Shown piece after piece: positions 37,801-64,000 of a DNA stretch of 64,000 nucleotides (position 1 is the first letter of the stretch; the number at the start of each line of letters is the position of its first letter). Where the stretch lies: positions 5,704,001 through 5,768,000 of the forward strand of contig CP089274.1 in assembly GCA_023920165.1 (NCBI GenBank), written 5' to 3'. The DNA is from Curvularia clavata. Taxonomy: Eukaryota. A program made the position numbers and the translations under genes. Under the pieces are notes generated by a model, which had not been told where the DNA came from, did no database searches, and was given only the letters and a program-made list of their open reading frames with translations.

Positions 37801-40800
37801 GAATAGTCGTTTTCGAAGAAAGACGGTATGCAATAAGCGACCCCGGATTCAGATGGAGAGGAGCGAAGGGCCGCACCGAGCCATGCAAATTGTTCACCAA
37901 CTTCAGCAATTGAAACAGCTGTTCCGAAGGCTTCAACCAGGAATTGAGATCCTTGAATCCATGCGATGAGTTTAGTACCATTGGGTAGTTCACCTGTTGA
38001 GACACCATTAGAGTCACAATAATCGCAAAACCAGAAGAGGAATCTTACATTCATGTCGGTGCTCGGGACCACTACCGAGCACATTCTTCAACAGGAGGAT
38101 TATGTCTTTTCCAGTGTACGGCCAGGTCTGAGATAAATATTCAGCACAAGTCTGTGCTTGAACATTTTGAGCAGATCCAGTTAAGACGATGACTTTCTCA
38201 ACCACGTCTTGAGGCTTTCCTTGGTACAATTGCTCTGCAAAAAACTTTAAAGGATCCCAGAGTATCAAGAGACGTAAGGTATGAGCTTTCGCTGGAGTGT
38301 TTTCACTGATGATTTTGCATGCTGGGAGAAGCTCCAGAATGCTTTGTCTGATCGCCATTATGTGATTGAGCTCTGATGAAACCAGGACGAGCTCTCTTAG
38401 TAATCTTGTGACAAGATGTTCAAAGACCGGATTTCCAGCGACGATATCACTGCAAATCGGTACCGTAATCATGCGGTTGCTCTCTTCATCTTCTGTTGAC
38501 TCCTTATCCGAAATCGGGGTTGTAGTTGTGTTGAAAGCTGTATGAAAGTTGTCATGACCCGCCCGGCCCTTTAGAGATGTTTCATCACATCTCAAGTCAG
38601 CCTCCAGTTTTGCATCCTTTGATTCGTCCTTTTCCCTGTTCCAGCGGCTAATCTTTTCTTGAAATGACATAGTATCATCGATATTGTTCTGGCTTGGGCA
38701 GTGTCTTTCAGACCAAACGTTCATGAAATGTTCAGCAATACTTCTACAAGATGTAAGTCAGTACCTCGAACATGATAGAAACTCAGATCCCAAGTTTGAG
38801 AGTACCGACCTTCGATTTCTGTGGACAAACGCCATTGCGTCTCGATGTTCTTGACTCTCCGAAACATGCAGAAGTTCCAGAGCACAATTATGAAGTATTT
38901 CAGGAAACGCTTCATGGATTCTTGCCATATCGGAGGTATCGGCTCTCTCAGGAAATATTTGACCAAACAAATAGTCAGCTGTTTGAGAAACCTGGATGTT
39001 AATTTCGGCGATCCTTCTCGAGAGCAGTGGCATTATCCATGGTTCGTGTTTAGACGGAATTTGTCCGTTCTTGTACAGCATTTCAACATCGCCGTCGATC
39101 TTGCGTGTATCGACTAGCATCTGAATCACTGATCGATGTCCTTTCTTCACTGCCAGAGTTAACGATGTTTCTCCATTATGGTCCTTGGAGGTAACATCGA
39201 CTCGGCCAGTCTCAAGCAGCATCTTGACCACGGCCTCATGTCCTCCTTGTGCCGCGAACATTAATGGCGTTCGACCTGAACAATCCACTGTATTGACATC
39301 AGTGGCATCGTTCTTGAGCAGGAATGCGACTATGCCCTTGAACCCAAACTCCGCCGAATATGAAAGTACATCCCTATCTTGCAAGAATCGGAACTGGGGC
39401 CCAATCTCCGATTGTTTGAATTCCGCGGGGTAATCGTTGGCGTTGCCCTTGAGGATTGCTTTTAGGGCCTCTTCGTTTCCAGTAGCCATAGCAGCGAACA
39501 CGGGGCATCCGTAACGCTCCCTTACAATCTCCAGACCTGACGGAGATTTTGGGTATGCCCTGATAAGCTCTGGCATGTTGTATTCCACAAGCAAGTATAA
39601 AAGGCTCACGTTTTCGGAATACCTCCGTACCTCAGATCTTTCGAAAAGGTTGTGTAGCTTCACCCAATTTGTGAGTGGAAATGTTTCAAGGAATCGTCTT
39701 TGGGAGACACCACCTAATTCCGCTGCATTTGAATGGAAAAGCAAATTGCTGACCGAATATTCTAAGAACGGGGATTTTGCAGAAACGGCGTGAGTTTCAA
39801 TTTTTTCAAGACAGCACCGCTTCAGCCACTCATGACACTGACCCTTCTGGTCTTCTCTTTGATCAGGTCCAATAGATTTGAAAGAGAGATGGCCCATAAG
39901 GAATTGCCGCACCGATTCGTGGATGAATCGGACTTGTCGAAACCCATCGTTGGTGACATGAATCAATCCCTGGGATGTTTCGCTGATAAAATGCTCCCCC
40001 ATATCCATGTATGTGTCCTCTATGGCCCAGCTCGATACATGTCTCTCTTCACGGGTGGCGGAATACAACTCCCCAGGACTCAGTGGGCGCTTGGCGAAAA
40101 GCACTAGCTGAAAATAATGCTTCTCGCCTGGTCGGATTGGCAATAAATCTTGGAATAGTTTGTGCAGGTTAGCTGGAATCTCCAGTAATCTCTGCCAGAC
40201 AGATTCAATACCGCTTCGATCAAACTTCCTGTTTAGAACACGTATGACCAGAACAACCCATAGGAAGACTCTTGGCGAAATTTCTTGCAGTTTGGTTCTG
40301 ATCTGATCTGCTAGTTTGTTGCTTCCAATCTTTAAGTTATCGTTTATGTAATTCGAAATCGCGTGAGCGTGTCCTTGCTTGGCTTCTAGCAACATCTCGA
40401 GTTCATCTTTGATAGAGATCCGAGAGAGATTTCTGCTCGATAAGCAAACTTGGAAATTCGTGCCGCACGACCCAGCAACAGCGTGAATGTGCTCAAAGAA
40501 CTTGATCATATCTCTTGCCTGGTCTTTTGGACATTCGTCTACTGCGTCGATGAAACAAAGTATTGGGCCACATCTCCGTACAATTTGTTCTATCAGTAGT
40601 TCGAGAGCTTCAATTGTCCATTGGCTGTCTTGCTCGCCATTTGGCTTCGAGATGTTGAGCTTATCGAAAACGTCCTGGAGAGCGAGATTTCCTTCAAGCA
40701 GTTGCACTGATAGTGACCTGTATGCTCCAGTAATTGAGCTTTCAAGATCATTGGTCGGTGGCGTAAAGAAGAAAGAAATTGTTTTGATTCCCTTGGCCCA

Positions 40801-41865
40801 TTCTTGAGCGTGGCTGAGAACAAATTTCATGAGCGTAGATTTCCCCGCCCCTAGATTTCCCTTGATGTGTAGGATCCAGTATTTTTCATTTTCCGGCGTT
40901 GTGTCGAGCCACTTAACGTATTCAGGCGTGTGCAAGAGCCATTCGCACGTATGAGGGTGTGCATTTTTTACAATCCTTTTGCCTACATCCATGTCATCGA
41001 ATCGTAATGAGTCCATCCATTCCTGCTTTCGTTTATTGCTGAGGAATGAAGTGCAAAGTTCTGAGGATGATCCAAGTGGCATATTAGTCACTTCTGTCAT
41101 ATTCTGATCGAACTCTATACGGTAGTTTACCGCTTCTCTCCGTGCTTGCTGGCTCGAGTGGTTTCCCAATTCCCTGTACTGGTCTTGCTGGGAACGTGTG
41201 AGATGAATGTCTTCCGCCCATGTACCAGTTGAAGCAAGTTTCCAGGTGTCCATGAATGGTAAATGTTGTCCAAACTGTTTAGGCGTTTTCTGCGACGGAA
41301 TCATGTCACCAAAAGGGTTAGCATTCTCAAGTGCATCTCTCATCTCTTCGAGAGTTTGCGCCATGGATGTTTGGTTGCCAAGATACGTTCCCTCACAGGA
41401 AAAGAATTCGATTGATGCGAGTGCGAGCAGTTCTGGTCGGTTCAAAATATAGCCGAACCATTTGCTGTTTCTCAAGTCTGAATTCGATCTCGTTGAGCCT
41501 GAGTAATGTTGATCTGAAGGGTTGCGTGAAACGTCAGATAGGTATACGTAGCATTTCTCCGCATTCTGGTGCCAGCGGAACATCGATTCCATCGCATGTT
41601 GTAACTCCGTTCTGTTGGAAGTGTCTATACAGCAGGTATCTATCCAGCAAAATTCGAGGCGGTCTCTTGCGGCTTGTTCCATGCAAAAGCGAATCTTCTG
41701 ATAACCTGGCTTGTTTTTTCCCTTGCCGTCCATTGCATCTTGAAAAGTATACTCATTTTCCTTTACCTCCCATGAATGTGAAAGAATCGCATATCGTGGA
41801 ATGTCTTCTTCTTCGCGTTCGACAAGGCTGAATTCGTGATCATTGTTCCGTTGTAAGAATCGCAT
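34896..41865 (-). CDS. NLR-like fusion protein of about 2247 aa: HET - NACHT - ankyrin - uncharacterised domain - PNP_UDP; exons 41865-38810, 38743-38049, 37993-37331, 37272-36056, 36008-34896
   Basis: HET motifs YAILSHSW and WIDTCCID; Walker A GNLGAGKST and Walker B CFIDAVDEC; ankyrin GRTPLMFAAQGGH and GETSLTLAVKKGH; PNP motifs GVAGG, FEMEAAG, IRGICDYADSHKNK. Four 47-66 nt GT-AG introns each preserve the frame; the spliced length of 6744 nt is divisible by 3. Confidence 0.8.
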
Positions 41866-42319
41866 TGAGGGGGAATGCGCGTCTGAAACAGGAGGTTGAC
41901 TTAGAAAGCAATCAGCTAATATGCGCCGAGTATCTGGGAAACTGTGCTCTTCAGATAGTTTGTGGACAAGAGTTTGTATGTGCCAATTGACATCAGGCTG
42001 AATGTAGTAGATGAACAACGATGTAGTATCACGTGCATAAATCGCCTTGTGTCACACATAGCTTGATATTTAATTAGGCAACACTCTTGCATCTTCTTAC
42101 GCTATCTCCAAGGCGATTGAAATGACAACAGGGATTCCTGCAAGTAACCATGTGACTGTGTGGTATCACGTGACTAGTTCGGCTCAGGTATGCACTACTT
42201 CTGCTATCTCTGACGACGCCAAGACCATCCTTTTGCTTTTCTCTGTGCTCATTTAATAGACCGGTTTCGCCTCCTGCTTGCACACTGTAGCTGGAGAGTC
42301 CATGTTCAAGTCTCTCAAA

Positions 42320-47846: not shown

Positions 47847-49183
47847 GCTTTTCTCTTATACACGAGTAGAGCTGTGAGAGATGACGGGGTATTCAAAGTG
47901 AGTAGCAAGAAGATCAATATTGTAAGATGTAACATCAAGATAATTAGCGCGATCTTAGCGCTGAACCCAGTGGCTGCATGCAGCGGGACCAATGAAAATG
48001 CTCGCTGCCGTTTACATCTGGAAAGACGTATCAAAGGGTGCGCTTACACAAGCTTCTCAAGTAGTACAGAACAGGCGGTATGTGTATAAGTAGAGTCATT
48101 TGTACATTTATGGCGGGCATCCAGGTCCCGCCATGAAGGATACTGTCAGGCGGTGAGATTTTAGCGCCAATAAGACTATTCCATCTTCACTACACTATCT
48201 ACTCTACTCGATAGATTATGGACTAAGCCAAGTTGGGCGAATCATTTACCCCGATTTAAGGCCGGGAACAACTCTCCAACACGTGGGGCCAATCTCACCA
48301 GCCATGCCAAACACAGGAATATCTCACGTCAATCTTTCAATGTTGCGTCTCGTACCGCCCTTAACCGCTCGTCGTCTACTCTGTACATCTCAATGCACCC
48401 AAGACAAAATCTAGATAAAAAAAGTAGCGCATATTCTTCGCATCCGTTCTCAGCCGCACATCATTTTTCAGCCGCACCAGATCTTGTTGCCTTAGCGGCT
48501 CTTCAGCTTATTTCTCCTTCCGCAGCCAGACAGCCTTCTTTCTTTCAATCCTCATAGTTCTGCCATTGACTTTTGCAGCCAAATGCCCAGGCTTCGAAAC
48601 TGCAAAACAAATTCCCTTTTGAGCTGATGTTATACCCTCAACCCTCCGCCCATGCCTTTGCGTCCTCCAAGCTAGCTAGCCAGACCGTTGCCATCAAAAC
48701 CTATAATGGAGCCTGAAGAAATCAACTGGGCTGGCCATATAGCCGAGCGCTTCGGCGATCGCGGTCTTCAGCTCTGGAAGAGTCCTGCTAGAGACCTCAT
48801 CAGTGCGATCTATACGATATTGAGCTCACTGGACATCAGTAGGACGGAGTACAATTCATTTCGGGCTCTGCAAAACATCTTTCCCCCAAGCAATGGAACA
48901 ACAGGAAGCCATTATCATGATTCGGCCGATATTCCGACGTTGCGAGATGCTATCCTGTATATACAGCCACCTGGGAACTACAATTACCAGGTAATCGGGA
49001 AGGGTCTATACTCCCAAATAGAATGTAAGCTCACTGCCTTACCCTCGTAGATGAAAGCTCAAACCAGGTGAATGCAGTCCGTACGTTCAAAAAAAGAGTA
49101 AATGGTATGTAGAATATCATTCCCTTCTATGGTCCGCGAAGGTGGTTCCAACATTCAAAATAGGGCTCGTAACGTCGCTACAA

Positions 49184-51391
49184 ATGGCACGAATGGAAGC
49201 CACAACGATCCGAAAATCCATTGTAATAGAAACCATTCCGAACGCCTCTCTTGAGCAGACTGGGTTTGCAAAATCCCTCCTTTCCAGAGCGATGTTCGCT
49301 GATTCACTTTACTTTTCGCCTTCGCCGTATACTCCGCTCCCTGACAATTCCTGGTTTCGTTTGGTAGTTCTGCTTCCTGGGGAATTTGAAGATGACATAT
49401 TCTGCCACCTTGTGCCTATTCAAAAGGCACATGCCCAACATATGTACGAAGCACTGTCTTATACTTGGTCCCCTCTTGGTCTCGATGATATGAGAGAGGA
49501 GGAAACCATCACATGCAATGGACACTTGATAACAGTGGAGGAAAATCTTGGGCTGGCCCTTCGGTGGTTACGTTCTATCTCAGAACCTAGAATCATTTGG
49601 GCAGATCAGCTTTCGATCAACCAAAGCGATAAGAGAGAACAGAGTGAGCAAGTGCAAGACATGAGTTCTGTTTACGCTCAGGCCAAAGATACTATTATAT
49701 GGCTTGGAAGCGATGAACGCAACAATGCCTGCGAAGCATTCAAGGCTGTATGTCGACTAGTGAACTCTTGGGACGCAGCAGAACACGCCACATACCAAAT
49801 CTGGAATGAAAATACGAAGACTTACGACCATCAGAAGCCTAGCGGACGATTCTCGGAAAGCGATAGATCGGCATCGTTCGACCTTGGAGTCTTGTATGGT
49901 AGCACTTGGTTCGAGCGCCGATGGGTCATTCAAGAAGCAGCTCTCTCCAATTCAGCAACCGTATGTTGGGGTAGAGAAAGGGTTTCATGGCGGCATGTTG
50001 GACTGGCAGCTGCGATTCTGAGGATGCAGCACCTCAATTTAATACAAAAATGGTCCCGTTCCGGAATGGATCACTGGGTCTCCGGGGTATATCACGCATA
50101 CTTGATCTTTCGGCTTTCAAAGCAAAAGGCCCTTCCCTCAATGGAGCTATCTTTTCTCAACTTACTCCGACTTACACAAGCTTTTCATACGACAAAGTCC
50201 CACGACATTGTTTATGCGCTATTAGGCATCACTACTACCGACAACAACCCTAACAGCGAGCAGTTCCTGGATGTCGACTACACAATCCCCGAGCATGATC
50301 TTTGGCTGAAAGTAGCTGAGAAGATGTTGAAGACTAATTCTCTTGCGTTCCTTTGCAATGCAGGACTGGAGAAGCGCAGCAACGAAGTTGGAGAGCAAGC
50401 TTCGGCTCCTAATGTCCCAACATGGGTTCCGACGTGGGAACGCAATACTACTGGCATGATGGCACCTTGGACTATTGGCTCTAGCTACAATCCTTCCAAG
50501 GGCTTTTCATTTAGGAGATGGAAGACTGACTGTGCAGCACATCTCGCGGTCGACGGCATCCAGGTCGGCACCGTGCTGTGGACAAGCCAGATGATTAAGG
50601 ACGGAGTTGCCACGAACGCTGACGAGCTTCGCCGGCTGGTTCGCCTACCAGCTTTCCAATCGTCTCCCCGCAATTCTACGGCCCCAAAGTTCTTGGGGCT
50701 GATCAAAGGGCAAGCTTCAAATCTCTTTTCAACCCGTAAAATTGCTGCTAGCAAAGAAACCCTCCAACGGGTTGCGAGAGCCCTGTCCGCGGGTAGAGAT
50801 GCGTACGGAGCACTTGACGACGGCCGTTCATCTCTCACAAGCGACTTTGCCGCATTTCTCGCCCAAACTGAGTATTTGGAGAAAGCAAGACCTCCCTGGC
50901 GTCCCGTGGTGGATGAACGTGTAATAAGTGAGCAGGACAAATATCGTCTCCTAGTTGAAAAAACAATGCACAAAAAAGACGTGCAACGGTTTCTTAAAGT
51001 CGTAGACATGATCTGTGCCCGACGCAGACTCTTCGTTACATCAAGTGGTCATCTCGGATACGGTCCTGAACATACCAGACCCGGGGACGTAGTGGTCATT
51101 CTTGGAGGAGCAAATATGCCACTTATGCTCCGGAAGAAGGAAGCGCTATACCAATTGCTCGGCGAATGCTTCATCGATGAGATTATGTCGGGCGAGGCAG
51201 TTCAGGCTATGCAGAAGGGAGAGCCCCTGCGAGGTCATTTCGATGTCGAAAATCTGGTGAAAGGCTTGTTCAGCTTTGAAGGGCTTGAGAATGCGGACGC
51301 GGATTTGCTGCAATCGGAACTTGGCAGGATTATGGATTATCTAGAGAAGGAATACCAGGTACTCAAAGTGAGACGATTCGACCTCTGTTAG
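49184..51391 (+). CDS. HET-domain protein of the HET-6 type; 5' end uncertain
   Basis: FRLVVLLPG, YEALSYTW, WADQLSINQSD, WFERRWVIQE, DIVYALLG, PTWVP, RRLFVTSSGHLGYGP...GDVVVILGG...LLGECFI. Confidence 0.88.
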   Translation: MARMEATTIRKSIVIETIPNASLEQTGFAKSLLSRAMFADSLYFSPSPYTPLPDNSWFRLVVLLPGEFEDDIFCHLVPIQKAHAQHMYEALSYTWSPLGLDDMREEETITCNGHLITVEENLGLALRWLRSISEPRIIWADQLSINQSDKREQSEQVQDMSSVYAQAKDTIIWLGSDERNNACEAFKAVCRLVNSWDAAEHATYQIWNENTKTYDHQKPSGRFSESDRSASFDLGVLYGSTWFERRWVIQEAALSNSATVCWGRERVSWRHVGLAAAILRMQHLNLIQKWSRSGMDHWVSGVYHAYLIFRLSKQKALPSMELSFLNLLRLTQAFHTTKSHDIVYALLGITTTDNNPNSEQFLDVDYTIPEHDLWLKVAEKMLKTNSLAFLCNAGLEKRSNEVGEQASAPNVPTWVPTWERNTTGMMAPWTIGSSYNPSKGFSFRRWKTDCAAHLAVDGIQVGTVLWTSQMIKDGVATNADELRRLVRLPAFQSSPRNSTAPKFLGLIKGQASNLFSTRKIAASKETLQRVARALSAGRDAYGALDDGRSSLTSDFAAFLAQTEYLEKARPPWRPVVDERVISEQDKYRLLVEKTMHKKDVQRFLKVVDMICARRRLFVTSSGHLGYGPEHTRPGDVVVILGGANMPLMLRKKEALYQLLGECFIDEIMSGEAVQAMQKGEPLRGHFDVENLVKGLFSFEGLENADADLLQSELGRIMDYLEKEYQVLKVRRFDLC

Positions 51392-51770: not shown

Positions 51771-53559
51771 TCAACTAGTCTCCCCCATACGTACAACCGA
51801 CACAACAAGACGTTGAGTTTGAATCTGTCCCCACACTGAAGTTATATGATCCACCTTTGTACCAAAACTCAGCCAGAAAAACCCATTTTTGGTCTTGACC
51901 GTGAGTTCATTGCGTAGTGGCCATTTTTTTGTTTTATCATACCCAATGACGTCCCATGGCACACCAGACTCTTGGTATCTGTCTGCGTATATGAGATGAG
52001 ATTGATTGAATGGACATCCATCATCAAGGACCCCTAGATCGAAGCCAAGGAATGGTTTCCTGCGGTAGCAAAGTAATTTTACTGGGATATAGTCGGTCTT
52101 CACAAGTATTTCGAGTTCTAGTAGCAGAGCGATGTTTGACAAATCAAGAGAGTAGCCATTATCCAAGAACATGTTGCCAGTATGGTCCCAATACGCTGTT
52201 GGAAAAGCTGATATGATGTTGACTTTTTCGGATGGCTGAACGCTCAGTGTCATTTTGCGGCAAGATGCAAATGCCTTCGATAGAGCAACACGGGAGTCCA
52301 TGACAATATGAGAGTTGCGAATATCTTGACGACCATATGTACGTCTTAATATCTCCAAATTGTTTTCAGCAAGTCGACAATAGAAATGCGGGGCCAGCTT
52401 GCGCAGAAATATTCCGTGCATCAGGCTACGGCCAGTAGGATCTATTCCCAAGGGCATAAAATAAACTGTTCGAAGAGATCCACCGGTACGTTGGATATTC
52501 ACAAGTTGTAGAGAAACTTTGGTAGATAGGGATAGTCCTTTGTTTGTCGTGGAAAATTCTCCAAGTGAATTAGAAGAAGCAACCACATTGTGTTTGTCGG
52601 CAAAATTTGCAGGGCTTGGAGCGAAGCACCCGATAAATTTCTGGTATGAGTCCTGCAAGCAGCGCCAGAAAAGAATGGTAAAGTCATTGTCACGTTTTAC
52701 GATTTCCTCTTGTAAGCGGCGAAAGGCTTTTCGCCCTTCGCCATAGATCAGGGGCATGTTGACATCGAAAATCCCTAGCAGACAGTATGCTACGTCCTCT
52801 TGTCGCTTAGTTTGGCGGCCGGCCGCCCAAGCCATTCTTTGTGCGATGCAGAATGAGGACAGCTCGCGCGCACCTAGAAGCGCTCTCTCATGGATTTTGG
52901 TAAAACGTGAAATAGACCGAGCATAATCAGCTTTGGTACCTATAAAATCCCAACTCTTGTTAAAAAATTTGAGTACAGGTGGCGCAATCAGCTCTTGCAG
53001 TGTCCAGCCGCGCGAGAACCAGCGACAGTTTTGCATCATGTCCTCGGGCTCATGTCCAGGAATCAGGTCTTCCAGAAAGGCATAACAGACTTGGGCTGAT
53101 TTGTACCATTGGAACATGGAGTTGATGGACTCTGTCAGCTCGGCGCTGCTCGACTTGTCAACTAAAATAGGCGTAGATAGCGTTAGCTTCTTTTCACGAA
53201 CGCTCATACTCTACGCCTTCTGAGCCCATGCGAGACAATCATGGAAAGGAGAGGAACGACTCACTTGTACATCACACGTTAGCAAAGCTGTTTTCTCTAC
53301 CTTTGGTAAGTGCAACTTACCTGCAACATGTATCGACCCAAAAATACGTGAGACCATCTGCTGCCGTTTGCCTGGCACAAGCACGTATTTTATCAAACCC
53401 TAACTTTCTTTGGCCGGTCCCTTGTACCATATCTTGATACGTGACCTCTTGATTGTCTGGACCCCAGGTGTGTGAGAGAATGGCGTAGGGTGGGATCTCT
53501 TGCCCCGTGAACTCAACAAGGCTGAAGCTGCCATCATCCTGTATATGTAGGAGACGCAT
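51771..53559 (-). CDS. HET-domain protein (HET-E-type N-terminal domain, no NACHT), 542 aa; exons 53559-53322 and 53161-51771
   Basis: MRLL...PPYAILSHTWG...FWVDTCC|IDKSSSAELTESINSMFQWY...WFSRGWTLQELIAP...EDVAYCLLGIFDVNMPLIYGEG. Confidence 0.88.
53162..53321 (-). other. Putative [D1,2] stwintron: internal intron 53320-53264 nested in the donor of an external intron (G at 53321 + 53263-53162)
   Basis: Minus strand reads TGC A|G-[GTAAGT...GCTAAC-14nt-AAG]-TGAGT...GCTAAC...TTTAG|TT GAC AAG. It has two branch sites, and two-step removal gives CC-IDKS. Confidence 0.75.
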
Positions 53560-53904
53560 AGGGCTTATTTTGAATTTATCGTAGATGCAGAAAACAAAAA
53601 GAGTGAGTTAGAATGTTGATGCGAGTTTACGCTGGCTTTCTTGGAATATGATGTTGTGATAGATAAGAGGAAGTGAAATGTAGAGAGGGCAAGACAAGGC
53701 GGGGCTGAAGGTGTAGCAGGCAGAAGCCACCAACACGTGCCTACGAGGCTTTAGCGACATGCCCAAGTCAGCCTTGCGCCGTCTTTAAACAGGTTTTGCG
53801 GAAAGACAGATTCCTTTTCTTTCAAGCATTGTTAACGAATTCAACACAGAAAATAGAAAACTGTGCCATTTGACTCTACATAACCCCTCGTATCCCCGAG
53901 CTCA

Positions 53905-54792
53905 TCAAAGCTCACTCTTCCACGAAAGATCCTCCGGCACGCCCATTTGTCTCTGCTGAAAGTTCAGTATACGCTGCAGGAAGATGGGCTTGATGCTCAA
54001 AATGCCAATGAAGCTCAACAAAATCATGAGCACGACACCGAGGCCCACACCCAACGCTACAGCATCCAGCTGCCTCCTCACTTTCCTCAACCAGGCCTTT
54101 GTGTCTTCAACAGCAATGTTCTCATCGTATGCGCGTCGTGCGCTCATCAAACCCGGAAGGTCGTCCAGAGAACGATGGTTGAACTGCTTTTGGTAGTCGC
54201 CAAGTTCCCTCTTCTCCATCATCTTGCGAGCCCAGTCCTCCATGGTATCCGGGTGCTTGGAACTATGCTCTTCATGAGTGTCATGCTCGTGGTTTGCATA
54301 AGTGATGGCGTCGCCTGCGGCTTCCGTGCCGTCAGTCGTTCCGTTGGTGATTTGTGGCACCTGGAAGCCGCAGCTCGTCTGCACTTTTTGGATTTTAAGT
54401 ACAATGACTGCTCTCACACCGGCAATATCAACATCATCGCCGTTTTCGGTCGACATCTTGGCGCGGATTTGGCTAAAGTACTGATCCCACTTTTCGACTA
54501 CTTTTCCCTTGCAGAACAGTCGCATAATCTTTGGCTTGGGGCCGAACGAGGAAAACAAGAGAGTAACACGCCCATTTTCGTAAATGTGTGAGATGGTCTC
54601 GCAGCCACTTCCTGTAGCGTCGAGGTAGGCAACTGTGTTGGGTCCTAGGACGGCAAAGGTCTTCGAAGGGTGGCCCTTAGGCGAGATGTTGATGTGATCA
54701 CCGGCCCACGGTGCGCTGGCGACAAAGAAGATAGGTTGCCTCGTGATAAAGTCGATGTGATCTTGGGTAAGGGAAGGATAGAATTTGACCAT
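53905..54792 (-). CDS. Pyridoxamine 5'-phosphate oxidase-like FMN-binding protein with C-terminal TM helix
   Basis: FFVASAP, HINISPKG, YLDATGSGCETISH, ENGRVTLLF, VQTSCGF motifs (YLR456W-like family). Confidence 0.85.
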   Translation of the reverse strand: MVKFYPSLTQDHIDFITRQPIFFVASAPWAGDHINISPKGHPSKTFAVLGPNTVAYLDATGSGCETISHIYENGRVTLLFSSFGPKPKIMRLFCKGKVVEKWDQYFSQIRAKMSTENGDDVDIAGVRAVIVLKIQKVQTSCGFQVPQITNGTTDGTEAAGDAITYANHEHDTHEEHSSKHPDTMEDWARKMMEKRELGDYQKQFNHRSLDDLPGLMSARRAYDENIAVEDTKAWLRKVRRQLDAVALGVGLGVVLMILLSFIGILSIKPIFLQRILNFQQRQMGVPEDLSWKSEL

Positions 54793-55291
54793 GATGAAGG
54801 CGGTAACCAAAAGGCGGTAAGTGCTTAAGGATTCAGTTATTATTGAAGTTGAGTCCAAGAAATTGGCGTGAGTTCTGGTTAAAAACGCAGGTGATGCGCG
54901 CAGAAAAGGTCCTGTGGAATGCCAGTAGTCCTGTGCGGATTGCCCGGGATGGTACCCTGAAAGGGGTGTATGTGGAAGATAAGATGGTAAAGGCTGAAGA
55001 ATTCAAACACCAATTGTCGACGTGTCGGACGCGGAAACGTGGGATCAGAGACCTGAATGGATTTGGGAGATGACAATCGAGCGTGCTGTCTTCCTAATGG
55101 CGTACAAATTCTAAGAGGAAGCTTTATATCGCGAGAATCTGGCGCAAGAAAGATTGAGTCGTCTCAATGCACGGTAGCGGCCCCATACCTTTTAAGTACT
55201 AGGCTGCTAGCTACAAGTGGGGGCGGGGCGCATCAACTATGAATCGCGAAGCCGTAACATCACACGCATAATACACAGCTCTACAGTCAAC

Positions 55292-55890
55292 ATGGTGCTC
55301 GCACTAGCATTAAAAGCAGAACTCAACGGGTTAGTTTACCGTGAAGCTTTCATGTCATCCTTTGTACTGATTTCCCTTACCTAGAGTGACGGACCTCCGC
55401 CCCAACGACACCGAAGATGCGCCTTTCTTCTACACTTTCAAAGTGCAATGCACATCATGTCGCGAGATACACCCAAACTACGTCACGGTGAACCGGTTCG
55501 AGATGAACGAGCAAAGCGGCAGTAAAGGCGAGGCCAACTTTGTATGGAAGTGCAAGAACTGCAAGGTTATTCTGCCCATGCGCTCTTTCACTACTCCTAC
55601 CAAATTGCTAACACACTCAATAGAGGGAGCATTCGGCGAACGTCAAATCCGCGCCCGCATCATATCCGCAGAGCGACCCACCAAAGAAGATCAACATACT
55701 CGAGTTTGACTGCAGAGGGCTGGAGTTTACGGAGTTCAAGGCTGAGGGCGAGTTCCTGGCCACAGGAATTGAATCTGGCACCAAATTCTCGGGCATTGAG
55801 CTGCCCGATGGTGAATGGTTCGATTACGACGAGAAAGCTGGCGAGGAAGTCAGCATCACAAATGTTGAGTGGGAGATTCGCCGCGCATAG
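55292..55890 (+). CDS. DUF866 / UPF0587 (CZIB, C1orf123-like) zinc-binding protein; introns 55330-55384, 55566-55623
   Basis: CTSC and CKNC pairs, GSKGEANFVWKC, FDCRGLE, WFDYDEKAGEEVSI. Confidence 0.9.
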
Positions 55891-61109: not shown

Positions 61110-64000
61110 ATGAAGTTCGGACACAATCTGCCCCGGAACCAGGTTCCAGAATGGGCAACCTCGTACATCAACTACAAGGGCCTCAAGAAGCTCATCAAAA
61201 ATGCTGCTGAAGCTTCAAAGAACGGCTCCGATCCAGATCTCACAGGTCAGTCTGAACCTTCCAAAGCCCACGTCCTAGCCAATCCCATGCATATTCAACA
61301 GCGATCCATGCACGCATGGGTCATATGGCTGACAGCAACTTACAGAGTTCTTCTTCTCTCTCGATCGTAACCTCGAAGATGTGGACAACTTCTACAACCG
61401 AAAATACGCAGAATTTTCTCGTCGACTTCGGATTCTACATGGCCGCTATGGGCGTGCCGCGCAGTTACCCGAAGGAATCGATAAAGATGAGGCACAAGAC
61501 CTTATGGGCGCATTGCTCGAGCTCCGAGGTTCCATGCGGAAGCTCCAATGGTATGGAGAAGTCAATCGGAGGGGCTTCATCAAAATTACCAAAAAGCTGG
61601 ATAAAAAGATCAAGACAGCGTGTTTGCAAGAGCCGTACCTGGCATCCAAGGTCAACCCAAAGCCTTTTGCTCACAACCTGCCACTCAACCAAGACATGAA
61701 GGCTGTTAATGAATGGCTATCAGGACTCGGCGATATCAAGACTTTTGATGATACAGGTTCCACACATTCTGCAGGCTCTCTTGGCCGGGTCCCAGGTCGC
61801 TCGCTCCATCTGCCCTCAGGCCTTCTTGATGCAGTAGATTTGGCTATCCGCAACGACCAGGCCGAGGACCTGGGTGTACAGATTGCTGAGGCTGCCGCGA
61901 ACAACGGCATAACCAGTTCGTCCATGCAGCAGGTCCTGCTGAACTTCTTGCAGCGTTCCATTTCATGTCGATCCAAAGAATGCATCAAGAGATTACTGCA
62001 GGATATCATCTCTCTAGACGAAGAAGACGACATAAACAAGCGTAACTGTATTCACCGCCTTGTCATCAACATTGGCCGTTCCAAGAGCGGTGACACATTC
62101 GGTGTCGATGGAACGCTCCTGCCCAGTTCAGGCGAAAACGGGAACTTCATAGTGCCAGCTACCGACCCCAATCGCCAACCTCGCCCTTGCACTACTACCG
62201 AGGAAGAATCGACACAACTGCTTAGTGAGAACGACGAGTCTGTCCGCTTGCTCATCTTTCTGCTTGACGAGCTGCGTGCCGAGCAGCGTAATGCGCTTCA
62301 ATCTCGTGACTCCTACGGAAGACTCCCACTTCATTACGCGGCACAATATGGCTTCGTGATCATCTGCCAGGTTGTCATAAAGCATATGCAAGATTGGGGC
62401 CAGTTTGATGTGTCACGAGGCATTGACTCCCCCCACTGGCAGGATGCCGATGGCAACGCGCCTTTGCACCTCAGTGTCATGGGTGGGCATGTCCTAACTA
62501 CCAAAACGCTCCTGGAGGCAGAGAACTGGCGGGGTACTAACAAAGAAAGACGCGCCTCCAGAATATCCACTGCCCGCTCAGGAGCAGTTCTGGCTCTGGC
62601 GACTCGATCAAACTTTGTTGATATTGTCAAACTCTTAGTTGAAGCTGATGTCGACGTCAACTACCAGGACGAGGGTGGCGAAACCGCTCTACACATGGCA
62701 GCGCGCTACGGATATGATCAGTGTGCCAAGGTTTTGCTGGAGGGCTCTAATACGAACAAAGCGGAGGTCGATATTCCTGAAAAGACGTTTGCCTGGACGC
62801 CACTATTCATTGCTTGTGTCGATGATCATCTCTCAATCGTGGAACTCTTGGCCGCTGCTGGAGCTGATCTGCACCGATGCGACAATTCCGGCTGGACAGC
62901 AAAAGAGCACGCAGCACTTCGTGGTCATATGCAGATTGCAGAAAGACTATGCGAACTTGCTCCCACATCAGTCTCGCCAAGCGTGGCACCCACGGATGCA
63001 CGGATTTCTCGAAGTGGTTCACCTCCCCAGAATTCTCTTGACGAGCGACGATCCAAGAATCTGAACCGAGACACAAACGTTTCCATACAGAAACCGCCAG
63101 AACCTGTAAAAACCTTTGGTCACCGCTACCTAACAAACGAAACCATGGTTTTGGTCAGTTTGGGGTCTATGGATGTCCGAAAAGACATACCGGCAGTCAA
63201 ACTCGACGACATTCCGCTTGCCGATGCACATGCAACGCAGCTAGATACTGCTCTATCTCTAGTCGTTCAGGCATCGGGAGCCAAAGGGGACCCCACAATC
63301 ATCGATTTACCCATTCAGGACAACATTGCCACAGAGCCTATTACATTCATGACCAGCGATATCACCAAAGTCAAGCTTTTGTTTGATCTTGTTCCTACCT
63401 ATGCAGGAACACATGAGCGGTCAATGGGGCGAGCCGTTGCTTTGCTCTCCACCATAAAGACCAGTGTCGGATCGAAGCGAATTCCCCTCCAAGGAGATAT
63501 GAAAGTCCCCATTGTGGCGGCCTCAACGCTGGACGTTATTGGATCGGTCAACTTCAACTTTCTGATTATCACACCCTTTCATCATCCAAACATGTCGATT
63601 ACTGAGCAACACACTTACTGGAAGAAGATGGCTGCAACAACGATGGTCATCGGCCACCGTGGTCTCGGAAAGAACACGGCGTCTCGCACATCGCTGCAGC
63701 TCGGCGAGAACACCATACAGTCATTTATCTCGGCCGCTAATCTGGGCGCTGAGTATGTCGAATTCGATGTGCAGCTGACAAAAGACCATGTCCCGGTCAT
63801 CTATCACGACTTCCTTGTCAGCGAGACCGGTATTGATGCGCCTGTACACACTCTTACCCTAGACCAATTCCTACATATTGGCGAGGGATCAAATCCTCGT
63901 TATGCTCGAACAGGGTCTCCAGACAGAACGCCCAATCTCAACGGCACCGAAGAAGACCGTCCCAGCGTGCGAAGGCCAAGGTCTTACTCTGTGGACAATT
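61110..64000 (+). CDS. GDE1: Glycerophosphocholine phosphodiesterase Gde1 (SPX-ankyrin-GDPD), runs off the window end; intron 61246-61345
   Basis: SPX start MKFG...YINYKGLKK and NRRGFIKITKKLDKK; ankyrin repeats; GDPD motifs VIGHRGLG, GENTIQSF, VEFDVQLTKD, IYHD. Confidence 0.92.

Follow-up and report, generated by a model that had tools for sequence, protein, structure and literature searches.

The minus strand of the window, by which we mean the whole 64-kb stretch of DNA that was analysed, carries a two-exon HET-domain gene that becomes a single open frame of 542 aa once fully spliced. The coordinates of its parts, and of the features found in the 160-nt interval between the exons, are collected in Table 1. 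Exon 1 encodes 79 aa plus one base and ends in ...WVDTCC (letters ...TGT TGC A), and its N-terminus, MRLL..., agrees with that of the homologues. Exon 1 alone is recognised by the Pfam HET profile (PF06985), with residues 25-79 matching profile positions 1-56 of 146 at a score of 24.6 bits, above the gathering cut-off of 22.5; at E <= 0.01 Pfam gave no match for exon 2 alone or for the longer ORF from 53210. Full-length homologues carry both PF06985 and PF26640, and homologues of 540-550 aa align with the window protein along their entire length. The motif W[VI]DTCC-I-DKSS is near-invariant among them, and it is within this motif that the coding sequence is interrupted.

Table 1. Features of the HET-domain gene and of the interval that interrupts it (window positions)
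Feature	Position	Strand	Details
Exon 1, coding part	53322..53559	-	ATG 53559-53557 to first base (A) of the Ile codon at 53322
Whole [D1,2] stwintron	53162..53321	-	160 nt, phase 1, GG..AG ends; GGTAAGT at start, TTTTAG at end
G1 of split external donor	53321..53321	-	G present in the unspliced X14 contig
Internal intron	53264..53320	-	57 nt; GTAAGT 53320-53315, GCTAAC 53283-53278, 11 nt, AAG 53266-53264
External intron remainder	53162..53263	-	102 nt; 103 nt counting G53321
Alternative internal acceptor AG	53209..53210	-	112-nt internal + 48-nt external unit, donor GTATGA; less likely
Predicted 5' hairpin GGTAAGT-TGC-ACTTACC	53305..53321	-	7 bp, 3-nt loop; would pair G1 and internal donor
Predicted 9-bp perfect stem	53169..53218	-	53218-53210 with 53177-53169; encloses external branch element; repeat pair I2
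Exon 2, coding part	51771..53161	-	TT of the Ile codon, then DKSSSAEL...; stop codon 51773-51771

A sequence-only reading of this locus had pointed out that splicing from the obvious donor, GTAAGT at 53320, to the acceptor at 53162 brings in a stop (AGT TGA). On the minus strand this is what we found: the missplice reads TGC AGT TGA and stops at residue 81, that is, after 80 residues. When all 160 nt are removed the junction becomes TGC ATT GAC AAG and the family motif WVDTCC-I-DKSS is restored, as had also been proposed, and only removal of the 160 nt restores it. The interval starts with a hybrid motif, GGTAAGT (53321-53315), in which G1 stands directly before a complete U2 donor for the internal unit. 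That unit satisfies the published rules, having its own branch element, a HAG-type acceptor (AAG) and a length of 57 nt. Its acceptor is directly followed by TGAGT (53263-53259; AAG/TGAGT), which together with G53321 makes the external donor GTGAGT once the internal unit is gone, and the external unit has its own branch element GCTAAC (53187-53182), 17 nt and the acceptor TAG (53164-53162). Given the G at 53320, a second canonical step needs a first unit with its first base at 53320 and a T directly after its last, and this is the [D1,2] arrangement. The two GCTAAC sites, the 57-nt removal that creates GTGAGT and the 103-nt intron that follows had all been described in the sequence-only reading, and each was confirmed in the sequence.

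To search for the [D1,2] design we took the pattern called Model A from section 5 of PMC9024468, the part of that paper that calls for a DYTRAY branch element 4-20 nt before a HAG acceptor and an internal unit of at least 42 nt, and in which the strict model allows 24 donors. Across both strands of the 64-kb window Model A matched once, at 53321. Dinucleotide shuffles of the window gave a mean of 0.12 matches, with at least one match in 11 of 100 shuffles, and when the ends of the interval were fixed and its interior shuffled Model A still fitted in 5 of 5000. The nested pattern thus exceeds chance. Enumerating the decompositions of the interval left 57 + 103 nt as the sole split where both units satisfy the published donor, branch-point and acceptor rules. 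The nearest competitor is a stwintron with a 112-nt internal unit that reaches to AG 53209, leaving 48 nt for the external unit. Its donor, GTATGA, is among the 24 published ones, a GCTAAC and a TAG are both present within the 48-nt unit, and a patch of the window near AG 53209 (~53214-53188) can be aligned to the internal/external junction region in one related locus (L001). However, its acceptor, GAG, is barred by Model A, and there is no branch element 4-20 nt upstream of it, the nearest GCTAAC being ~68 nt off with earlier AGs in between; we regard this split as very improbable.

The mature junction is present in contigs from RNA libraries of two studies, which join 53322 to 53161 exactly, with a skip of 160, a 'both' value of 0 and zero mismatches. 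These are the 160-nt gap starting with GG and the mature junction that had been suggested earlier as an RNA check. The contig of the first (X1, a metatranscriptome) is 151 nt long, of which 129 nt lie on 53033-53161 and 22 nt on 53322-53343, while that of the second (X3, RNA by guess) places 26 nt on 53136-53161 and another 124 nt on 53322-53445. Their short sides of 22 and 26 nt are under the 31-nt threshold for a bridging record; the two contigs come from different studies, are anchored on opposite sides of the junction and agree with each other. RNA libraries can contain DNA, and with X3 being RNA only by guess, the joined contigs might be DNA of an intronless allele or retro-copy. With that said, the record of X1 describes it as a metatranscriptome, the two contigs match the window exons at 100% identity and neither X1 nor X3 has cover inside the interval, and we give this explanation next to no credence. 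The start of exon 2 with T at 53161 rules out an alternatively spliced [D1,2]/[A2,3] stwintron.

Single canonical introns that keep the frame by using another acceptor or donor were also considered. Three candidates are open in frame: GT53320..AG53209 (adding 16 aa), GT53320..AG53203 (adding 14 aa) and a 163-nt GC-AG intron giving WVDTC-F-DKSS. In each of the two RNA junction contigs the skip is exactly 160 nt, and a family HMM built from 62 homologues gave the fully spliced form 589.4 bits and the two in-frame canonical rivals 567.0 and 565.4 bits, that is, 22-24 bits lower. Nor is there such an in-frame acceptor ahead of the real one in two of the related loci described below (L006 and L008). 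A single intron of this kind is barely credible as the main form, though such forms could occur as rare isoforms.

A contig from a third run (X14) spans 53313-53496 without gap or mismatch, and the GG is present in this unspliced form. It bears on the possibility that an extra G in the assembly disguises an ordinary 159-nt GTAAGT..TAG intron, for which the mature RNA would look identical. The X14 contig makes such an error unlikely, although it is not fully independent on its own because it could come from the window's own sample; separate metagenome assemblies, including the four related loci with an interval at this site, likewise read A-GGT at that codon. We consider an assembly error very unlikely indeed. 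Among the four runs, which were available as contigs only and so with rare forms dropped, there was no joint skipping 53264-53320 alone and none for the 159-nt missplice, and the interior of the interval had no contig cover in any of them (zero in bins 53218-53283). An apparent 81-nt 'skip' from 53021 to 53103 in X14, with 5 mismatches and one side of 24 nt, was set aside as most likely coming from another organism.

For comparison we used 70 related metagenome loci, in which the split between stwintron, no intron and ordinary intron at this site was counted by hand as 4, 66 and 0. In the four (L001, L002, L006 and L008, from three lineages) that codon is split by a GG..AG interval of 131 nt whose sequence has diverged; a look for the structure in orthologues had been suggested earlier. 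Each 131-nt interval has exactly one valid decomposition, 49 + 82 nt, and the regenerated external donors are GTGAGT, GTAAGC and GTACGT. Between L006 and L008 the branch element and the regenerated donor differ while the nesting is valid in both, and the 17-nt gap from branch element to acceptor in the external unit is identical in L001, L006 and L008. GTTCGA and GTTGGT, which stand as internal donors in the relatives, are outside the 24 donors of the strict published model. The nested design is kept at one codon in three diverged lineages while the sequence drifted, and a single grouping of the stwintron-bearing genes is weakly supported (SH-aLRT 76). A conserved in-frame ATG inside the external intron was considered as the possible start of a truncated isoform; by our reading of the sequence its frame is open in the window and L001 and closed by a stop in L006.

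The conservation of the design also bears on one-step, non-canonical splicing, in which GG at 53321 would serve as 5' splice site together with AG 53162 and the internal motifs would be incidental. That the contigs hold the mature junction alone, with no intermediate, fits with this reading. GG is not known to be an accepted U2 donor, and a branch element, a HAG and a T-plus-donor remainder are rightly spaced in 4/4 intervals from three diverged lineages. Anchored Model A fits all four intervals, with interior shuffles fitting in 5, 3, 1 and 3 of 5000, so at most 5/5000. For published stwintrons of like design, moreover, PMC5639578 and PMC12403724 describe proven intermediates. One-step splicing from GG is highly unlikely on these grounds.

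The RNA junction, the motif model, the three lineages and the HMM all support a [D1,2] stwintron that has to be removed in full for the HET protein to be expressed. We put at roughly 0.87 the probability that a genuine [D1,2] stwintron interrupts this two-exon HET-domain gene, whose host is a Pleosporaceae-like fungus (Dothideomycetes). As the intermediate was not seen among contigs, which drop rare forms, we infer the order of the two reactions, and likewise that the internal unit is the one of 57 nt and what becomes of misspliced RNA. On this [D1,2] route a U2-type spliceosome acting by intron definition would first take out the 57-nt unit through its GTAAGT, GCTAAC and AAG, leaving an intermediate with exon 1 directly before GTGAGTCG. 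G53321 would then be brought against TGAGT to form the new donor GTGAGT, and an ordinary second reaction could excise the 103-nt external intron using the distal GCTAAC and TAG. Joining exon 1 (...TGC A) to exon 2 (TT GAC...) would give C-I-D and the 542-aa protein with its HET motif unbroken. If the internal donor were instead paired with the distal acceptor, one G would be retained and translation would be expected to end at the early stop noted above.

[D1,2] stwintrons, some of them in HET genes, are already catalogued, and the present case is a new, position-conserved one. In Hypoxylon sp. CO27-5, PMC9024468 lists 81 position-conserved, sequence-unrelated [D1,2] stwintrons, of which no-22 lies in a HET-domain gene. 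Like these Hypoxylaceae stwintrons, the window interval has a G plus a full donor at its 5' end, a HAG directly followed by T and a donor remainder, two branch elements and a fit to Model A, and it holds its place in the gene across diverged relatives despite sequence drift. It differs in its host, which is Pleosporaceae-like (Dothideomycetes) and not of the Xylariales. It also differs from no-22, being in phase 1 between WVDTCC and IDKSS as opposed to phase two, in another exon context, and 160 nt long as opposed to 202 nt.

The lipS [D1,2] stwintron that PMC5639578 describes in Aspergillus nidulans and A. niger is similar in several ways: the A. niger copy is in phase 1, the lipS internal unit is 52-53 nt long, the regenerated donor is GUGAGU, and the structure is conserved over wide taxa and lost in some lineages. 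According to the same paper the lipS intermediate was cloned by RT-PCR, unlike here, where it is a predicted species, and early-diverging classes have an ordinary intron at the lipS site, whereas an ordinary intron is found in 0/70 related loci here. PMC12403724 describes proliferating 'sister' [D1,2] stwintrons of the Xylariales with complementary near-terminal inverted repeats (NTIRE-10) by which the two terminal G's are brought together, several of them in HET-domain genes. The window interval is of the same stwintron type and shares the missplicing hazard in which one retained G shifts the frame. Unlike the sisters, it has no complementarity between its 5' and 3' terminal regions, and without complementary near-terminal inverted repeats in the interval its placement in the sister/NTIRE-10 class is not supported. 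Within the 64-kb window and the 70 loci there was no sequence-similar copy.

Regenerated 5' splice sites are also known from recursive splicing in animals, where very long introns are subdivided at ratchet points. In both cases the first reaction makes the 5' splice site for the second, but the nesting in the present gene involves two short fungal introns and lies at the donor, with the intron itself supplying the first G.

A repeat search in the interval gave no pair linking the 5' end to the 3' end, and in the minimum free energy (MFE) structure predicted for the whole interval (-47.5 kcal/mol, z = -2.54) the 5' end pairs with itself. The 5' hairpin of Table 1 is repeat pair I4 and lies within this structure; it is not conserved in L006. 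An Rfam search of 53000-53700 on both strands (E <= 1) returned 0 matches, and there is therefore no sign of a small RNA carried by the intron. A promoter and terminator scan found nothing, and is uninformative since its patterns are bacterial consensus sequences and the host is a fungus.

The sequence-only reading had gone further and proposed that obligatory two-step splicing throttles a toxic cell-death gene. We found no support for this idea, since the 66 of 70 related loci without an intron at the site are joined by the neighbouring HET gene, which has no intron at the corresponding site either. We see only a slim chance that the stwintron has been retained in the core of the HET motif in one gene lineage because its splicing gates the output of a potentially lethal protein. 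On that reading a slow two-step route would be productive, a fast one-step route would retain the G and yield a dead, frame-shifted message of 80 residues, and local RNA structure, in the form of the 7-bp hairpin that covers G1 and the internal donor, would govern the balance of the two routes. Most likely the structure has no function beyond that of an inherited intron.

The main bearing of these results is on annotation and intron evolution, and the known workings of stwintrons are unchanged by the present case. It adds a [D1,2] stwintron from beyond the much-studied Xylariales that is backed by RNA at the mature junction, and since 'stwintron' and 'no intron' are the only states of the site in our sample, it bears on the origin and loss of such structures. 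As for annotation, the catalogued protein of the window (P0001) begins at a Met inside the interval and is missing the HET N-terminus, and an Alternaria alternata model of a homologue skips most of exon 1. The earlier expectation that gene predictors would mis-model the gene therefore stands insofar as both of these models are faulty, but not as an attribution to any prediction program. With at least one deposited homologue model garbled at this place, HET and allorecognition genes may be miscounted or misclassified in Pleosporales wherever the structure occurs. The model of the Exserohilum turcica homologue has an oddity of its own, reading CC-SF-DKSS.

We conclude that the interval separating the two exons of the HET-domain gene at 51771-53559 is a real [D1,2] stwintron, with an RNA-supported mature junction and a design conserved in relatives. 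The gene starts with an ATG at 53559 on the minus strand and stays open as far as TGG GTC GAT ACA TGT TGC A, ending at 53322; continued unspliced, this frame meets a stop in AGG TAA. On the same strand and downstream, 479 codons are open between 53210 and the stop at 51773-51771. Candidate messages were constructed by script from the window sequence. Splicing GT 53320 to AG 53162 gives TGC AGT TGA and ends the frame after 80 residues, taking out 53320..53264 alone likewise leads to a stop, and removing all 160 nt gives TGC ATT GAC AAG and a single frame of 542 residues, with exon 2 beginning with T (53161). The sequence-only reading was correct in all its coordinates and letters, and the messages reproduce both its stop from the obvious donor and its recovery of frame and HET motif on full removal.

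Since the removed stretch begins with G-G, its excision in one GT-AG or GC-AG reaction is impossible. For G53321 to be the first base of a second canonical reaction, the first must remove 53320 up to a T, an arrangement that defines the [D1,2] stwintron (PMC12403724, in part). Each AG followed by T within the interval was enumerated and scored by published rules, namely a donor from a list of 24, DYTRAY 4-20 nt before the acceptor, a HAG acceptor, and units of at least 42 nt (PMC9024468, in part). A single split, 57 + 103 nt, satisfies these rules in both units. The alternative of 112 + 48 nt is weaker, as its acceptor would be GAG and a branch element was not found near that acceptor. Model A, the published [D1,2] search pattern (PMC9024468), matches once on both strands of the window, at 53321; dinucleotide shuffles average 0.12 matches, with at least one match in 11 of 100.

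Coordinates and elements of the stwintron, its relatives and neighbouring genes
Feature	Position	Strand	Description
Interval between gene halves	53321..53162	minus	160 nt; 5′ GGTAAGT, 3′ TTTTAG
Internal unit	53320..53264	minus	57 nt: GTAAGT, GCTAAC, 11 nt, AAG
External unit	G53321 + remainder to 53162	minus	103 nt: GTGAGT, GCTAAC, 17 nt, TAG
Hairpin, perfect 7 bp	53305-53321	minus	GGTAAGT/ACTTACC; covers G1 and internal donor
Stem, perfect 9 bp	53169-53218	minus	brackets external branch element
Metagenome locus L001			internal donor GTTCGA; internal branch element ACTAAC; regenerated external donor GTGAGT
Metagenome locus L006			internal donor GTTGGT; internal branch element GCTAAC; regenerated external donor GTAAGC
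Metagenome locus L008			internal donor GTTGGT; internal branch element GCTGAT; regenerated external donor GTACGT
HET gene	49055-51391	plus	uninterrupted 778-codon frame, full HET match
HET gene, NLR-type	38761-42051	minus	HET + NPHP3_N (NACHT-like) + ankyrin repeats
CXXC zinc-binding protein gene (PF05907)	55371-55890	plus	two frames, profile positions 10-69 and 70-155
Upstream neighbour	53905-55002	minus	pyridoxamine 5′-phosphate oxidase-like domain (PF01243), then hydrophobic C-terminal stretch

A search of sequencing runs returned 14, each with a small share of the sampled words, and four were aligned to the window. In X1, a run recorded as a metatranscriptome, a 151-nt contig places 129 nt on 53033-53161 and 22 nt on 53322-53343; in X3, a run from another study that is RNA by guess only, a 151-nt contig places 26 nt on 53136-53161 and 124 nt on 53322-53445. 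Neither contig shows a mismatch, and each has a skip of 160 with a 'both' value of 0, so the joint is fixed and cannot slide. They are anchored on opposite sides of the junction and are mutually consistent, with short sides (22 and 26 nt) below the 31 nt asked of a bridging record. The 160-nt RNA gap proposed as a check on the stwintron is present as an exact skip in one contig from each of two studies. Skips of 159 nt or 57 nt and the rival junctions were seen in none of the contigs, an absence that carries no weight, since contigs drop rare forms and the interior of the interval is without cover in any run. An ordinary GTAAGT..TAG intron would yield identical RNA if a surplus G had entered the window sequence. 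Two results argue against this: a contig of X14 (run kind unknown) spans 53313-53496 gapless and mismatch-free and therefore contains the GG, and A-GGT also stands at that codon in contigs of other metagenome assemblies.

JGI metagenome contigs were scanned with the first 200 exon 2 residues, giving 70 loci in which exon 1 and exon 2 homologues were located. Four (L001, L002, L006 and L008) have a GG..AG interval of 131 nt at precisely the same codon as the window, those of L001 and L002 being identical; in 66 the codons for Cys, Ile/Val and Asp follow one another without a break, and an ordinary intron at the site was found in 0 of the 70; this division is a hand count from printed rows, with 17 of the 66 judged by printed flanks. 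For every 131-nt interval, 49 + 82 nt is the only split that is valid. The external branch element lies 17 nt before the TAG in all of them, as in the window. The relatives' internal donors read G-T-N-N-G-N, but they are not among the 24 published donors. With the first seven and last three bases held fixed, the anchored model was fitted by 5 (window), 3 (L001), 1 (L006) and 3 (L008) of 5000 interior shuffles each. L006 and L008 are closely related; the sites at which they differ include the internal branch element and the regenerated donor, and either version is valid.

A quick maximum-likelihood tree was built from the window and 54 of the 70 loci, leaving out 16 with short matches or no nearby exon 1 match. 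One branch separates the five stwintron-bearing rows from the others, so that a single change explains the pattern; all of 500 label shuffles required more changes. The branch itself is weak (SH-aLRT 76), and a single origin at this site is therefore only consistent with the tree and not proven; the group is nested in an 18-row group with support of 91. Five other loci (L011, L043, L048, L049 and L050) have no exon 1 homologue within 1500 nt upstream of the match. Just upstream, L048 reads TAG followed by TC TGC ATT and the other four CAG followed by TC TGC AT[CT]/GTT, which suggests that an intron lies within the Cys codons, a few bases upstream, and that the first exon is distant or different.

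With its residues 25-79, exon 1 covers positions 1-56 of the 146 in the Pfam HET profile and scores slightly over the curated cut-off (24.6 bits against 22.5), and exon 2 by itself has no Pfam match at E <= 0.01. Used as a query, exon 2 retrieved 7808 proteins at E <= 0.001 among 8000 candidates scored, and our statements on homologues rest on the best 120 of these. Most full-length matches among the 120 are 530-560 aa with PF06985 and PF26640, and W[VI]DTCC-I-DKSS[SA]EL is nearly invariant in that set. Against a family HMM built from 62 of the 120 (520-600 aa, motif present and within the first 110 residues), the fully spliced form scores 589.4 bits, and the canonical in-frame alternatives GT53320..AG53203 (+14 aa) and GT53320..AG53209 (+16 aa) score 567.0 and 565.4 bits.

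By reading, 17 of the best 120 proteins have a short unrelated start running into ...V-DKSS, as expected when an intron's last bases (AG followed by TT GAC) are read in frame. These proteins show that an intron is present at the site, not its type; most are of metagenome origin, where gene calling probably takes no account of introns. The 17 include P0001, the protein catalogued for the window itself, which has 478 aa, starts with MSVREKK at 53207 and lacks the HET part, and P0002 (74% identical), whose start mirrors the 3′ end of the window's intron. Among deposited models, P0027 (Alternaria alternata) jumps from mid-exon 1 into the intron's 3′ part and skips most of exon 1, P0003 (Exserohilum turcica) reads CC-SF-DKSS, and P0040 and P0078 (Alternaria) start at a downstream Met without the HET part. 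Predictors stumbling on a non-canonical interval would fit the A. alternata and E. turcica models, and this nested structure may occur widely in Pleosporaceae and be mis-annotated there. The window interval cannot be aligned to those of its relatives save for a short patch, AGTATGA..TTCGT.AAAAGA, common to the external introns of the window (53207, minus) and L001 (about 2420-2500). In both, the patch contains an ATG in the reading frame of exon 2, and this explains why ORF callers place protein starts at it (P0001 and P0054-like predictions); in L006, by reading, a stop closes the frame. The patch may reflect residual homology, or it may provide a HET-less isoform with an alternative start.

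HET domains can trigger cell death, and the sequence-only reading had offered two-step splicing as a throttle on the gene, a speculation we consider highly improbable. We saw no evidence of a regulatory role: the family can do without an intron at this site, as 66 of the 70 loci lack one, and the neighbouring HET gene (49055-51391) is intronless across its frame. The interval folds at -47.5 kcal/mol versus -38.4 kcal/mol in shuffles (z = -2.54, 1 of 200 as good), and its 7-bp hairpin is not kept in L006. In the part of PMC9024468 consulted, no conserved secondary structure is reported for nine older position-conserved stwintrons tested, and selection is argued to act on correct excision only.

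In line with the sequence-only reading, good documentation of [D1,2] stwintrons exists for Pezizomycotina, with more than 100 reported in one Hypoxylon genome, most at family-conserved positions with little sequence similarity (PMC9024468, in part), and 288 sequence-similar ones in 14 Xylariales (PMC12403724, in part). Excerpts of the latter give the field's acceptance standard as correctly joined RNA reads, ideally with intermediate reads, and document missplicing that keeps one G. For the Aspergillus lipS stwintron, intermediates are proven, the internal unit is 52-53 nt and the regenerated donor is GUGAGU (PMC5639578, in part). 'Stwintron' and 'heterokaryon incompatibility' were not found together in any main text of the searched literature. 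HET-domain hosts do appear in the supplementary tables, as far as consulted: PMC9024468 Table S1 has no-22 (202 nt, phase two), and Table S1 of PMC12403724 mentions such hosts five times, so a stwintron in a HET gene is not new. In one host listed in PMC12403724, a member of the same HET subfamily as the window gene, the stwintron sits at another place and the IDTCC-I-DK codons are uninterrupted. What does appear new is the site together with the host lineage. The stwintron adds to an already known kind and is of modest interest, its main uses being gene-model correction and a data point for intron evolution. The window interval lacks terminal inverted repeats, and a similar copy was not found in the 64-kb window or the 70 loci; as far as testable, it would not be of the proliferating 'sister' kind. 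A [D1,2]/[A2,3] dual stwintron is ruled out because exon 2 begins with T.

The glycerophosphodiesterase gene at 61333-63999 shares 93% identity with its Bipolaris zeicola counterpart, 85% with that of Alternaria and 84% with that of Pyrenophora, placing the window in a Pleosporaceae fungus near Bipolaris (Dothideomycetes). Three HET-domain genes lie within 15 kb, and the stwintron gene is convergent with its plus-strand HET neighbour. The division of the PF05907 gene into two frames points to an ordinary intron between them.
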